35,933 nt of DNA. It comes from an archaeon (lineage in GTDB: Archaea > Nanobdellota > Nanobdellia > WJKC01). The stretch spans positions 1 through 35,933 of the forward strand of contig WJKC01000005.1 of assembly GCA_014729335.1 (NCBI GenBank). The letters are read 5' to 3'. Under the pieces are notes generated by a model. It did no database searches and had not been told where the DNA came from. It saw nothing but the letters and a program-made list of their open reading frames with translations. Below are positions 12,521-32,826 of the stretch, in pieces; the first letter of the stretch is position 1, and every line of letters starts with the position of its first letter. Both the position numbers and the translations under genes were made by a program.

Positions 12521-14521
12521 ATGAAATTAATTAACACTTTCAAGTCGTTTATCACCAAGAACTATGGCAAGAAGGTATCTAAAGCTGTTAAGATGGGTGA
12601 CAGCTTCTTCATTGACTTCAAGGAGCTTGACCTGCAGGAGCAGGAACTAGCTGATGAACTGCTTAATAACCCTAAAGAAACGCTCCAGGCTTTTCAGACA
12701 GCTTATGACGAGCTTGAATTCTCCTTAATCCCGCGGTTCATCAACCTGCCGGAGACTAATTCAATTAAGATTAAGAACATCAGGACCAAGAACTTGAACA
12801 AGCTGATTCAGATTGAGGGGATTGTACGGCAGGCAAGCGAGGTCAGGCCAGCGAGCGCGTCAATAATATTTGAATGCCCTGCCTGTGCTCAGAAGATAAT
12901 TGAGCCGCAGGAGAGCAACCGGGTCAGCTCTCCTAAGAGGTGCCCTAACTGTGGGCGTATGGGCAAGTTCTCAGTGGTTGATAAGAAACTAATTGACACC
13001 CAGCGGTTAATCCTTGAAGAGTCGCCTGAGAAGATGGAGGGCGGTGAGCAGCCGCAGCGGATTAATATTATTTTAAAAGATGATTTAGTTGACCCAACAA
13101 TTGTTAAGAAGACCTGTCCTGGCAGCAAGGTTGAAGTCACAGGGGTGTTGCAGGAAGTTCCTATCTACCTAAGGAGCGGCGGTAAGAGCAATCGTTTTGA
13201 CTTACTAATACAGGCTAACGCTGTTAACCCAATAGAGTATGAGTTCGATGACATTGACATCTCTAAAAAGGATGAGAAGAAGATTATGAAGTTCGCCAGC
13301 AGCGGCAAGATTCATGAGAAACTAGTTGATAACATCGCGCCTAACATTTATGGTTATGAAGAGATTAAGGAGGCAATTGCTATTCAGTTATTCGGCGGTG
13401 TTCGTAAGATTAGGGATGATGGGACCAAGGTAAGGGGTGACATTCACATATTATTAGTCGGCGACCCAGGGGTTAGCAAGACCCAGATGCTTAGCTACGT
13501 AGCTCAGATAGCACCCAAGGCTCGTTATGTTAGCGGCAAGGCAAGCACTGCCGCGGGCTTAACTGCCAGTGTTGTGAAGGACGAGTTTGTTAAGGGGTGG
13601 AGTCTTGAGGCGGGCGCGTTAGTACTGGCTAACAAGGGCATCGCATTGATTGACGAGCTTGATAAGATGACCACTGAGGACCGGAGCGCTCTTCACGAGG
13701 GGCTTGAGTCGCAGACAATCACTATCAGCAAGGCTAATATCCAGGCAACGCTTAACTGCCAGACCAGCGTACTTGCAGCAGCTAACCCTAAGTTCGGGCG
13801 GTTTGACCCATTCGTCCCTATTGCTGAGCAGATTGATATCCCGCCAACACTGCTTAACAGGTTTGACCTAATTTTCCCAATGAGGGATGTGCCAAGCCCT
13901 GACCGGGACTCTAAGATAGCTTCTCACATGCTTGACTCAGCTCAGAACCCTGATAAGGAGCGGGGGGTTATTAATAACGAGTTCCTTAGAAAGTACATTG
14001 CTTATGCTAAGAGAATTAAGCCCGAGATAACTAATAGTGCTATTAAGACGCTGCAGGACTTCTATGTTACGCTGCGTAATAAGAAGATGATGGCTGAGGA
14101 TGAGGTGAGGGCTATACCTGTCAGCCCGCGGCAGTTAGAGGCGTTGGTGAGGATTAGTGAGGGCTGCGCTCGCTTAAGGCTTAGTAAGAAGGTGACTAAG
14201 AAGGATGCTGAGAGGGCTATCAGGTTATTAAAGTATTGTTTGTCAAAGGTGGGTGTTGACCCTGAAACAGGCGAGATTGATATTGACCGGTTGGTGACTG
14301 GTTTCTCTGCTAAGCAGCGGAGTGATATAATGAAGATAAAAGAAGTGATTAATGGGTTAAGTGATAAGTACGGCAACGCCATCCCCACTGATGAAGTGAT
14401 TAACAAGGCTGTTGAGTTAGGTCTTAGTGAGCAGAAAGCTGAGACCCTTATTGAGAAGATGAAGCGTGAAGGCGAGATATTCGAACCAAAGCACGGCGTG
14501 ATAAGAAAACTACCAAGGTAA
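12521..14521 (+). CDS. mcm: MCM replicative helicase
   Basis: Zn motif CPACAQ...CPNCG, Walker A LLVGDPGVSKTQML, Walker B ALIDELDKM, AAANP, arginine-finger region LLNRFDLIF, and a C-terminal winged helix. ATG 12521 is preceded by GGAGG at 12512-12516. The track's GTG at 12506 is an alternative leaderless start. Confidence 0.93.
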   Translation: MKLINTFKSFITKNYGKKVSKAVKMGDSFFIDFKELDLQEQELADELLNNPKETLQAFQTAYDELEFSLIPRFINLPETNSIKIKNIRTKNLNKLIQIEGIVRQASEVRPASASIIFECPACAQKIIEPQESNRVSSPKRCPNCGRMGKFSVVDKKLIDTQRLILEESPEKMEGGEQPQRINIILKDDLVDPTIVKKTCPGSKVEVTGVLQEVPIYLRSGGKSNRFDLLIQANAVNPIEYEFDDIDISKKDEKKIMKFASSGKIHEKLVDNIAPNIYGYEEIKEAIAIQLFGGVRKIRDDGTKVRGDIHILLVGDPGVSKTQMLSYVAQIAPKARYVSGKASTAAGLTASVVKDEFVKGWSLEAGALVLANKGIALIDELDKMTTEDRSALHEGLESQTITISKANIQATLNCQTSVLAAANPKFGRFDPFVPIAEQIDIPPTLLNRFDLIFPMRDVPSPDRDSKIASHMLDSAQNPDKERGVINNEFLRKYIAYAKRIKPEITNSAIKTLQDFYVTLRNKKMMAEDEVRAIPVSPRQLEALVRISEGCARLRLSKKVTKKDAERAIRLLKYCLSKVGVDPETGEIDIDRLVTGFSAKQRSDIMKIKEVINGLSDKYGNAIPTDEVINKAVELGLSEQKAETLIEKMKREGEIFEPKHGVIRKLPR

Positions 14522-14522
14522 A
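14483..14522. repeat. Direct repeat copy 1 (last 36 coding nt of mcm + TAA + 1 nt)
   Basis: gaaccaaagcacggcgtgataagaaaactaccaaggtaaa is identical (40/40) to 14578-14617. Confidence 0.95.
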
Positions 14523-14549
14523 AAGAAAAAAGGGAAGGGGGTAGCGTAG

Positions 14550-14577
14550 GGGGAAACCGCAGGTGTCCCCTCGTTTT
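14550..14577 (+). terminator. G/C hairpin followed by a T4 tract, inside the spacer between the mcm-end repeats
   Basis: GGGGA-a-ACC-gca-GGT-g-TCCCC (14550-14570; 5 bp + 3 bp stem with an A/G mismatch) is followed by cgtttt (14572-14577). The terminator function is inferred. Confidence 0.35.
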
Positions 14578-14617
14578 GAACCAAAGCACGGCGTGATAAG
14601 AAAACTACCAAGGTAAA
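14578..14617. repeat. Direct repeat copy 2 (non-coding duplicate of the mcm 3' end)
   Basis: Perfect 40-nt copy of 14483-14522. The 95-nt offset puts it out of frame with mcm. It is followed immediately by the TATA-like gatttaaatt of the next gene. Confidence 0.95.
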
Positions 14618-14638
14618 GATTTAAATTAGTAGAGGTTA

Positions 14639-15271
14639 ATGAGTTATACAATGTTCACAAAGAGGCACACGGCTTATAAGTTAAGGATAAAGGATATTCT
14701 TAGCAACGATTTTGTTTCAAGGGATGGTGAGAGTGATTACGTATTAGTTAATGACCAGCAGGTGTCAAGGGTTAGGGTTATGGCAACGATTGTTAACCGG
14801 TTCATTAATGATGAGCGTAAGAGCGGCTCGTTAATCATTGATGATGGTTCGGAGGTTATCAGCTTAAGGGGTTGGGAGGACCAGTTCCATATGATTGACA
14901 AAACTGCTATTGGGCAGTTAATTGATGTTGTGGCTCGGGTCAGGGAGTATAATGACCAGGTCTATTTGGTGCCTGAGATAATAAAGAAAGCAAGCCCCAA
15001 CTGCTTCGTGCTCAGGAAATTAGAGTATGATAATCATAAAGGCCCTGTTAAGACTGCTAAGCCTGAAACCAATAAGCCTGAGGAAGAGGATGACGGGTTA
15101 AAAGATAGTGTCTTTAAGAAGATTAAAGATGGCGGGAGCAAAGGTGTTAAGATGGATGAGTTAATCAAGGTCTGCGGTGACAAGAATACTTGCAAGACAG
15201 TGTTGAAGACCTTATTAGAAGAGGATATGATTTTTGAACCAAGGGCTGGCAGGTATAAAAAACTTGAGTGA
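14639..15271 (+). CDS. OB-fold plus C-terminal winged-helix protein (RPA32/Stn1-like putative ssDNA-binding protein)
   Basis: Central OB-like segment is VSRVRVMATIVNRFINDERKSGSLIIDDGSEVISLRGWED...LIDVVARVREYNDQVYLVPEII. An acidic linker follows. The C-terminal wH segment is VKMDELIKVCGDKNTCKTVLKTLLEEDMIFEPRAGRYKKLE. The gene is adjacent to mcm. TATA spacing suggests the start may instead be ATG 14651. Confidence 0.5.
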   Translation: MSYTMFTKRHTAYKLRIKDILSNDFVSRDGESDYVLVNDQQVSRVRVMATIVNRFINDERKSGSLIIDDGSEVISLRGWEDQFHMIDKTAIGQLIDVVARVREYNDQVYLVPEIIKKASPNCFVLRKLEYDNHKGPVKTAKPETNKPEEEDDGLKDSVFKKIKDGGSKGVKMDELIKVCGDKNTCKTVLKTLLEEDMIFEPRAGRYKKLE

Positions 15272-29215: not shown

Positions 29216-29246
29216 TAACACTTTAGTGTTATTATCGGCAGGCTTA
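29216..29246 (+). repeat. tRNA-Ile trailer module: hairpin plus a copy of the tRNA 3' end
   Basis: Hairpin taacac-ttta-gtgtta (29216-29231), then tta, then tcggcaggct (29235-29244). This is identical to tRNA positions 29178-29187 (T-stem 3' strand plus acceptor 3' strand). Extended to the discriminator, 11 of 12 nt match. Confidence 0.8.
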
Positions 29247-30948: not shown

Positions 30949-30988
30949 GGTTCAAAAATCAATAGATTTTTGTTACCGGCAGGAGCAG
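30949..30988 (+). repeat. tRNA-Glu trailer module: GGTTCA-hairpin-TGTTA plus a 13-nt copy of the tRNA 3' end
   Basis: ggtt + hairpin caaaaatc-aata-gatttttg (30953-30972) + tta + ccggcaggagcag (30976-30988). The last block is identical to 30906-30918 (T-stem 3' strand, acceptor 3' strand, discriminator, +1). Confidence 0.85.
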
Positions 30989-32787: not shown

Positions 32788-32826
32788 GGTTCAGAAATGC
32801 CTGATTTCTGTTAATCTCTCCCTACA
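32788..32826 (+). repeat. tRNA-Leu trailer module: GGTTCA-hairpin-TGTTA plus an 11-nt copy of the tRNA 3' end
   Basis: ggtt + hairpin cagaaat-gcctg-atttctg (32792-32810) + ttaat + ctctccctaca (32816-32826). The last block is identical to 32764-32774 (T-stem 3' strand, acceptor 3' strand, discriminator). Confidence 0.85.

Follow-up and report, generated by a model that had tools for sequence, protein, structure and literature searches.

The window analysed here is the whole 35,933-nucleotide (nt) contig WJKC01000005.1 (contig C42 of genome G000), from an archaeon whose relatives carry the name Candidatus Nanoarchaeia (DPANN). In this window the 3′ end of mcm, the replicative helicase gene, is present twice, in direct orientation, on either side of a 55-nt spacer that contains a hairpin. 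We found that the spacer recurs at a second place in the genome (contig C61), that at least 17 sites of the genome have GC-rich hairpins between direct repeats, and that six such sites are empty in sister genera. Among the explanations put forward in the original prediction, which was made from the letters of the window, a small hairpin element with a long target duplication is thus the best supported: it is somewhat probable that the 95-nt block, made up of the spacer and a single repeat, is the footprint left by a tiny hairpin DNA element without genes, which inserted at the boundary between mcm and the downstream rpa gene and duplicated its target.

The mcm 3′ end is duplicated around a hairpin

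G000 is a genome of 847 kb in 65 contigs, 85% complete and with 41.8% G+C. The mcm junction of the window contains the following features; types of hairpin are defined below.

12521 to 14521, plus strand: mcm (replicative helicase), recognised from its translation, the homologues of which are MCM proteins with MCM Pfam domains
14480 to 14522, plus strand: repeat copy 1, the 13 last mcm codons, the stop codon and 1 nt; functional gene end (exact part 14483 to 14522)
14523 to 14531, plus strand: A-rich spacer leader AAGAAAAAA, the sequence of which varies between G000 and genome G001 of the same family
14532 to 14541, plus strand: type-1 purine box GGGAAGGGGG, conserved in 7/7 aligned archaeal copies
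14550 to 14570, plus strand: core hairpin GGGGAAACC-GCA-GGTGTCCCC, with an identical core at C61:11387
14571 to 14577, plus strand: element 3′ end TCG, then TTTT; a TCG, TTCG or TTG end adjoins repeat 2 in all hairpin families
14575 to 14617, plus strand: repeat copy 2, non-coding here and probably the native mcm end before the next gene (exact part 14578 to 14617)
14620 to 14626, plus strand: TATA-like TTTAAAT, a putative promoter by its letters only, ~12-19 nt before the ATG (14639) of the next gene
14639 to 15271, plus strand: OB-fold (RPA-like) gene, found downstream of mcm throughout the class; its orthologues have a weak Pfam tRNA_anti-codon OB domain

Sequence comparison bore out the duplication as originally described: positions 14483-14522 and 14578-14617 agree at 40/40 bases with an offset of 95 nt, and the spacer that separates them (14523-14577) has no gene inside. 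Taken from a Phe codon onwards, the repeat extends over 42 nt (14480-14521 and 14575-14616) with one mismatch, a synonymous TTC/TTT difference, and both 42-nt copies encode FEPKHGVIRKLPR*, that is, the last 13 codons of mcm and the stop. The offset of 95 is indivisible by 3, which shifts copy 2 out of the mcm frame, and copy 2 is located past the mcm stop codon (TAA, 14519-14521). Candidate starts of mcm are 12506 (GTG) and 12521 (ATG). Exact-match look-ups of the window’s MCM and RPA-like proteins gave no match, and an MCM query against the genome contigs gave no confirmed relative. A 175-amino-acid open reading frame antisense to the mcm 3′ end (14062-14589, minus strand), which reaches into the spacer, is probably spurious.

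The spacer is also as G-rich and as structured as had been claimed, with 55% G+C against 42% in the mcm-end repeat. Its hairpin (14550-14570) has a stem of GGGGAAACC and GGTGTCCCC, with nine pairs and one A.G mismatch, and a GCA loop; the TTTT that follows is preceded by three nucleotides (TCG). The full 55-nt spacer folds with an energy of -17.7 kcal/mol, for which the z-score of -1.8 is only modest. A consensus scan called no canonical terminator at the mcm spacer, where TTTT stands 3 nt off the stem in G000, and the T run is absent after the hairpin in three related lineages (G001, L211 and L214). Similarly, Rfam covariance models run against 14440-14680 returned nothing relevant up to an E value of 10, nor at the gathering threshold. 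At the junctions, copy 1 ends in …GGTAAA and the spacer begins with AAGAAAAAAGG, and the spacer end …CCCCTCGTTTT is followed by GAACCAAAG of copy 2. There are no terminal inverted repeats: the spacer runs from AAGAAAAAAGGG to CCCCTCGTTTT, and the internal hairpin is its sole palindrome.

Hairpins between direct repeats recur across the genome

Exact direct repeats of at least 14 nt within 160 nt of each other number 85 in G000, compared with 1 in an order-3 Markov simulation. Many of the 85 are intra-protein repeats, and at least 17 enclose a GC-rich hairpin. At these hairpin sites the repeats measure 14-55 nt (lengths of 14, 18, 19, 20, 23, 24, 25, 30, 40, 48 and 55 nt), and the period, repeat plus spacer, is 48-108 nt. 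The hairpins fall into families. Type 1, exemplified by the mcm spacer, consists of a purine box and a hairpin with a GNA loop; type 2, GGGGTGTCGAGAGGGGC-loop-GCCCCTTCG, is the commonest and is flanked by at least eight unrelated repeats in G000; type 3, GGTTGCCG..GGGCCGCGCTGGGGGCCC, is found at C1:2290; and other families have various cores. All of the families are polar, in that the 3′ end (CCCCTTCG, CCCCTTG or CCCCTCG) directly adjoins repeat 2, and 0-32 variable nucleotides lie between repeat 1 and the core.

RNA genes are among the targets. Eight of the 34 tRNAs of G000 have a downstream copy of their own 3′ end (at least 10 nt) and 5/34 an upstream copy of their own 5′ end, compared with 0 in an internal control. 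In the window, the trailers of tRNA-Ile, tRNA-Glu and tRNA-Leu do share the mcm layout, as had been noticed from the sequence, and tRNA-Asn has no copy of its 3′ end.

29235 to 29244, plus strand: second copy of the tRNA-Ile 3′ end, 10 nt, after a 44-nt hairpin trailer
30976 to 30988, plus strand: second copy of the tRNA-Glu 3′ end, 13 nt
32816 to 32826, plus strand: second copy of the tRNA-Leu 3′ end, 11 nt

On another contig, C27:11554-11982 (L221) holds an archaeal RNase P RNA gene (Rfam E = 5.5e-14, under the gathering score), the last 19 nt of which are duplicated behind a T run and a hairpin insert; G001 has the single-copy state. At C27:17034-17370 one tRNA is followed by a two-unit tandem array of the tRNA 3′ end plus a 42-nt spacer, which indicates that repeat-mediated expansion occurs; the tRNA that comes next, Arg-tcg, is accompanied by a hairpin of its own and by 15 nt copied from its 3′ end. 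Another repeat family (…TTTGGGATTGAACACTTTTCCGCTT.CGCGCAAAAG…), with a 15-nt repeat at a tRNA-Cys 5′ end, was seen at C24:6256-6550 and C12:1-121.

Evidence of insertion comes from empty sites. We concatenated 15 G000 sites with their flanks and searched them in three other genomes of the family (G001, G002 and G003). Wherever both flanks could be aligned, the relatives had a single uninterrupted target without the hairpin. These cases number six (C31:3758, C54:13994, C13:1655, C54:9241, C33:285 and C27:11887, each single-copy in G001, G002 or G003), and the uninterrupted targets in sister genera indicate that the G000 sites are true insertions with target duplication.

Our search for the spacer and its architecture beyond mcm therefore found the recurrence that an isolated slippage event should lack. 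Plain tandem duplications with periods of 53-63 nt do occur in G000 (C53, C9, C27 and C12), as would be expected if the block had arisen locally, by slippage during replication or by a tandem duplication that took up filler DNA, as an isolated accident involving no mobile sequence. However, the spacer is a conserved dispersed motif, the architecture recurs at many loci and in several genomes, and the empty sites are clean; we consider such an accident very improbable.

The mcm junction is a hot spot in related lineages

Throughout the class, one and the same OB-fold (RPA-like) gene lies 2-56 nt downstream of mcm. We compared this junction in 14 lineages, ten of them further close relatives with 71-83% identical MCM (residues 300-666 searched), and found type-1, type-2 or type-3 hairpins, other repeats, or an empty site.

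G000: type 1, 42-nt repeat
G001: type 1, core ~90% identical to that of G000; 58-nt exact repeat (65 nt with two mismatches)
L217: type 1; copy 2 shrunk to ...GAGGTGA
L214: type 2 hairpin; 42-nt repeat with four mismatches
L211: type 3 hairpin; 42-nt repeat with five mismatches
L212: other repeats; in place of the RPA-like gene, an unannotated 87-amino-acid open reading frame was called next after mcm
L213, L215, L216, L218, L219, L220, G002 and G003: empty junction (8 lineages)

Type 1 thus occupies three of the 14 junctions, type 2, type 3 and other repeats one each, and eight are empty. Between the repeats lie 28-55 nt of non-coding hairpin sequence, or 32-55 nt when G000, G001, L211 and L214 are considered, without an integrase gene or remnant, and the length of the mcm-site repeat varies by lineage (9, 42 and 65 nt). 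A hand count gives ~83% identity between the L211 spacer and that of G000 C1:2290-2337. Behind mcm in L212, a repeat unit (…TTTGGGGATTGAACACCTTTCTTTCTAAGAAAGGGG…) that is related to the G000 family at the tRNA-Cys site occurs twice.

In the MCM tree, L211 (type 3), L214 (type 2) and L220 (empty) form a group with support of 88/88, G001 and L217 are sisters, and G000 falls within an unresolved 11-member clade that includes several empty lineages. The mixture of occupants and empty lineages on this tree indicates that the site turns over quickly. Together, these data identify the mcm end as a hot spot, at which three hairpin families, or nothing, are found at the same position in close relatives.

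The same comparison bears on whether the duplication could be an artefact, with two alleles or a repeat collapsed or concatenated during assembly. G000 is a 65-contig bin, and contigs C12 (1-121), C16 (12673-12857) and C53 (4460-4574) terminate inside direct repeats of 55-58 nt, a length that probably reflects the k-mer limit of the assembler; longer duplications probably exist and contribute to the fragmentation of the assembly. However, the 40-nt mcm repeat is shorter than the ~55-58 nt at which contigs break, a contig could be built only if k-mers across the repeat-spacer junctions were in the reads, and four other assemblies, from different samples and pipelines, have the same layout behind mcm (G001, L211, L214 and L217; NCBI JBAZFG01, JGI 3300018080, JGI 3300009320 and JGI 3300023207). 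We therefore reject an assembly artefact, to which we attach almost no probability.

The type-1 core has a wide distribution

A second type-1 spacer copy in G000 (C61:11363-11408, 83% identical) adjoins 14 nt repeated from the 5′ end of a tRNA-Thr gene with an intron. The ARAGORN call for this gene (C61:11152-11319; L222:255-419, minus strand) is Thr(tgt), interrupted by 79 nt of intron, with uncertainty over both the call and where the intron lies. The intron holds a hairpin, GGGGGAAGTGTCCCC, similar to the type-1 stem. In other genomes, type-1 copies are found at tRNA-Ala 3′ ends with a 20-nt repeat (G067 and G075) and behind tRNA-Ala (G090). In G295 (C21, L078), the tRNA-Arg(tcg) at locus 1461-1645 has a 113-nt intron at position 38/39 that starts with a reverse-oriented type-1 element, which is followed by a second GC hairpin, GCGCGCTTCGCGCG. 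The core is therefore conserved over three families of the class, and its targets comprise the mcm end, a tRNA-Thr 5′ end, tRNA-Ala 3′ ends and the 5′ end of a tRNA-Arg intron.

An exact 21-mer of the spacer had no match in metagenomes. A metagenome scan with GGGGAAACCNNAGGTNNCCCC returned at least 120 stretches, and the figures given here are from 80 loci (L091-L170) with 91 strand-hits. Among the matches listed, the purine box GGRAAGRGG lies 2-29 nt upstream in 42/91 strand-hits, where chance predicts ~0.4% per hit, and the loop is GNA in 37/43. More than 40 unrelated contigs from metagenomes, with a GC content of 29-77%, contain the type-1 core (GGGAAGGGG box, short linker, GGGGAAACC-GNA-GGTTTCCCC); examples are L129:1050-1110, L162:1160-1215 and L098:50-110. 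Again among the matches listed, some low-GC contigs carry giant-virus-like genes (DUF5832, ERCC4 and GT10) and several high-GC contigs have the motif just downstream of tRNA genes; the open reading frames of the high-GC contigs are too noisy for taxonomic assignment. Rfam searches of 30 motif-bearing metagenome loci identified tRNAs only, searches of plasmid and phage collections gave no meaningful match to the motif, and its letters do not occur in the searchable literature. These findings suggest that the type-1 core may be an unrecognised, widespread structural motif.

The motif has features that would suit a structure in DNA. C-GNA-G loops are known from very stable DNA mini-hairpins. Read in reverse, the purine box (GGGGAAGGG) mirrors the stem's purine strand (GGGGAAACC), a pattern that would be expected of an intramolecular purine triplex, with GGGAAGGGG predicted to fold onto GGGGAA. 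Covariation in the type-1 hairpin is too little to argue for or against an RNA structure, most pairs being invariant.

Paired mcm-end copies differ only at synonymous positions

The mcm-end repeats of G000 and G001 differ at 10/40 positions, whereas the two copies within a genome differ at 1/42 (G000) or 2/65 (G001) positions and are exact over long stretches. The repeats, identical within a genome and divergent between genomes, are thus not decaying neutrally. The differences that do separate paired copies in G000, G001, L211 and L214 are all synonymous (12/12) and keep the stops, an outcome with a probability of 3e-9 for random changes, and 11/12 lie no more than 16 nt from the stop codon.

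G001 and its sister L217 have in common the element and two distal differences (CCA AGA TGA in copy 1, ..G AGG TGA in copy 2), and their mcm ends differ at ~8/42 positions, counted by hand. Copy 2 of G001 equals its own copy 1 over 58 nt despite this divergence from L217, which indicates that the proximal part was homogenised or re-made after the two lineages split. Copy 2 of G001 keeps a Shine-Dalgarno-like GAGGTGA motif 7 nt before the rpa ATG, as at empty junctions, and copy 1 has lost the motif through two synonymous changes. Similarly, copy 2 of L214 is nearer than copy 1 to the native end of its empty sister L220 (7 compared with 11 differences). From these comparisons we conclude that copy 2 is probably the native mcm end.

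The origin of the copy differences can be accounted for in several ways. They may reflect selection on the working copy 1 beside the hairpin; the insertion allele may have been acquired from another, related lineage, the right-hand crossover falling within copy 2; or copy 2 may still serve as coding sequence after excision or splicing. The synonymous, distal differences also fit the replacement end of an attachment (att) site, and can also result from recombination between lineages or from selection on copy 1 alone.

Weighing insertion against an att-like cassette and an intron-like insert

Several observations weigh against the insertion of a mobile hairpin element. Neither an insertion event nor an enzyme or a free intermediate has been observed. 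C47:9678 is irregular: judged by the G001 orthologue, 26 nt of native gene end stand between repeat 1 and the hairpin, where a simple target-site duplication predicts none, so that the second repeat there copies a segment that does not adjoin the insert. Among the matches listed, most metagenome copies of type 1 have no flanking repeats, and the motif may serve a function unrelated to mobility. The restriction of the copy differences to synonymous sites could mean that copy 2 is still coding. Finally, the duplications around three different hairpins, in G000, L211 and L214, cover precisely one and the same 42-nt segment, which begins with the TTC/TTT Phe codon and ends with the stop; such agreement is not predicted by random staggered cuts. 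This suggests either site-specific targeting or one old duplication in which the hairpin was later exchanged. The shared segment is the strongest point against purely random insertion, and it keeps an att-like or cassette explanation alive, if unlikely.

According to the latter explanation, the hairpin and one copy of the mcm end would move as a cassette by site-specific (tyrosine recombinase) or homologous (Campbell-type) recombination. Copy 1 would be the replacement end supplied by the cassette and copy 2 the displaced native end, both remaining translatable since excision restores a gene ending in copy 2. Direct repeats of 40-65 nt at gene 3′ ends are typical of archaeal att sites (PMC3293823), and the uniform segment boundaries, the synonymous and stop-proximal copy differences and the affinity of L214 copy 2 to the L220 native end all fit. 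At tRNA genes, the repeats begin at the T-loop or close to it, and the beginning of the mcm repeat is a T-loop-like TTCGAA/TTCGAG. Moreover, tyrosine recombinase genes are present in 5/5 genomes tested, although these could encode an ordinary Xer-type enzyme. Recombinase open reading frames of ~390-413 amino acids lie at G000 C58:2795-4033, with a C-terminal zinc ribbon, and at G001 C10:28197-28688; a tRNA matching the one at G000 C61 is found ~700 nt away from the G001 gene. Integrase fragments were also noticed at the ends of contigs C26 and C30, the latter near tRNA-Pro.

Against such a cassette, the 28-55 nt between the repeats hold no integrase remnant, and a duplex circle of ~95 bp is implausibly small. 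One hairpin family is associated with unrelated repeats at its other targets, with no common att core; type 1, for instance, has repeats of the mcm end, a tRNA-Thr 5′ end, a tRNA-Ala 3′ end and another sequence around it. Campbell crossover between diverged copies would scatter differences over the whole repeat and not at the distal end alone, and recombination between the C47:9678 repeats would not restore the native gene. The att-like scar proposed in the original prediction therefore stands in part: copy 2 does behave as a displaced native end, with synonymous differences near the stop, but no integrase or element body accompanies it and the repeats at other targets are unrelated. On balance, we regard recombination of an att-like cassette as unlikely.

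Continued coding by copy 2 would be explained if the hairpin and one repeat were removed from RNA by bulge-helix-bulge splicing, or were bypassed, so that copy 2 encodes the MCM C-terminus in part of the transcripts. Consistent with this, the differences are synonymous only, and a type-1 element forms the 5′ end of the 113-nt tRNA-Arg intron in G295. However, an in-frame stop already ends copy 1, making splicing needless; direct repeats cannot pair together; and splicing would serve no purpose at the many sites located at the start of a gene or the end of an RNA gene. We find an intron-like or bypassed insert improbable.

Enzyme searches are relevant to how the favoured hairpin element might insert. 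We found no match to reverse transcriptase (RVT_1, PF00078) in G000 (85% complete) or G001 (96% complete), and PF00078 matches are present in G067 and G295. TnpB (PF07282) was found in neither G000 nor G001; the DDE, HUH and Cas1 families were not searched. Insertion of the hairpin element would thus be unlike the activity of a classical transposase or a resident reverse transcriptase. In a first stage, insertion at the DNA level would duplicate from 14 to at least 58 nt of the target, and in compact genomes the only survivors would be insertions whose duplication spans a gene boundary. At the mcm junction, copy 1 would keep mcm complete, and copy 2, probably the native end, would stay directly before the next gene. 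In a second stage the repeats would mediate precise loss by deletion, the growth of arrays, and gene conversion or unequal recombination that homogenises the copies. Homologous recombination through the repeats may also spread the insertion allele from one related lineage to another, with copy 2 keeping the codons of the recipient. The hairpin, possibly a purine triplex, possibly acts as single-stranded DNA.

Two further candidate details were rejected. To see whether the variable nucleotides that separate copy 1 from the hairpin are the decayed half of a longer duplication, 10 sites were compared with shuffles, and 0 were significant. Setting of the left repeat boundary by microhomology with the element 3′ end fits L214 and L211 (TTCG / TTCG) and fails for G001, C13 and C47.

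A broader proposal can be put forward only tentatively. The hairpin units could be a distinct kind of DPANN mobile DNA that is addressed by the gene-end repeat and is acquired, lost and transferred among related genomes by recombination through that repeat, with both ends kept translatable. Their primary insertion would follow an undescribed mechanism without a classical transposase or reverse transcriptase, and would perhaps be linked to replication and provoked in single-stranded DNA by the hairpin or triplex. In that case the type-1 core would be a structural DNA motif that crosses domains.

Implications

If the hairpins are truly mobile, DPANN archaea hold many tiny elements that insert at the boundaries of genes and RNA genes without breaking them, and that duplicate up to ~60 nt. 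DPANN genomes are otherwise regarded as nearly transposon-free. Annotation would be affected, as duplicated gene ends, pseudo-starts and extra tRNA ends mislead gene callers, and so would assembly, as contigs break at repeats of at least 55 nt. Regulation is a further consideration, with a hairpin set between co-transcribed replication genes. No described mechanism of transposition would fit duplications that are both long and variable and that involve neither reverse transcriptase nor terminal inverted repeats. The mcm locus also offers a natural experiment, in which 14 close lineages have four different occupants, or none, at a site defined to the nucleotide, and gain, loss, gene conversion and lateral spread become testable with population metagenomes.

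Comparison with known systems

The mcm junction resembles archaeal attL/attR sites, made by SSV-type and pNOB8-type tyrosine integrases, in its exact direct repeat of a gene 3′ end, which at such sites measures 40-65 nt. At att sites, too, copy 1 rebuilds the gene, the displaced native end lies downstream and tRNA genes are frequent targets (PMC3293823); SSV1, for example, uses a 44-bp repeat of a tRNA 3′ end as its att site (PMC3293823). The hairpin sites differ in having 28-55 nt between the repeats with no integrase or cargo, in combining one hairpin family with unrelated repeats at each target and no common att core, and in a repeat length that varies by lineage at the mcm site (9, 42 and 65 nt).

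Like MITEs (miniature inverted-repeat transposable elements) and other non-autonomous DNA transposons, such as Correia elements and Sulfolobus MITEs, the hairpins are small, non-coding, structured, dispersed and multi-copy, with a target duplication. Unlike MITEs, they have no terminal inverted repeats matching a transposase; their duplications are variable, at 14-58 nt, compared with a fixed 2-15 nt; they are polar, with a defined 3′ end and a variable 5′ leader; and no partner transposase was found, TnpB and reverse transcriptase being the only enzymes tested. Retroposition of the short interspersed nuclear element (SINE) type, by target-primed reverse transcription, likewise gives long, variable target duplications with one sharp end and one variable, often A/T-rich end, but searches of G000 and G001 detected no gene for a reverse transcriptase.

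Rickettsia palindromic elements, yeast mitochondrial GC clusters and the Magnusiomyces ‘byp’ elements are short GC-rich hairpins in AT-rich reduced genomes, tolerated in or beside genes, and the DPANN hairpins share this form and placement. We know of no report of these elements having target duplications of 20-60 nt that rebuild gene ends, and their organisms and sequences are unrelated to those of the DPANN hairpins. Fujishima et al. 2010 are said to have reported that tRNA introns of the Thermoproteales transpose. Such mobile bulge-helix-bulge introns are also small, structured archaeal elements tied to tRNA genes, and one type-1 copy lies in a tRNA intron; unlike them, most hairpin copies lie outside mature RNA and coding regions and are flanked by duplications at the DNA level.

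A 2026 survey of archaeal transposons labels some repeats as SINE-like, by RepeatMasker homology only, and does not describe hairpin elements (PMC13343696). In the literature on DPANN, hairpins and target duplication we found no description of a class of hairpin mini-insertions, and this small type of insertion seems to be undescribed in print. Each of the nearest known systems fails at least one of the defining features tested, where testable. What the mcm locus adds is a hot spot defined to the nucleotide and used by several occupants, the homogenisation of its repeats, the restriction of copy differences to synonymous sites, and the wide distribution of the type-1 core.

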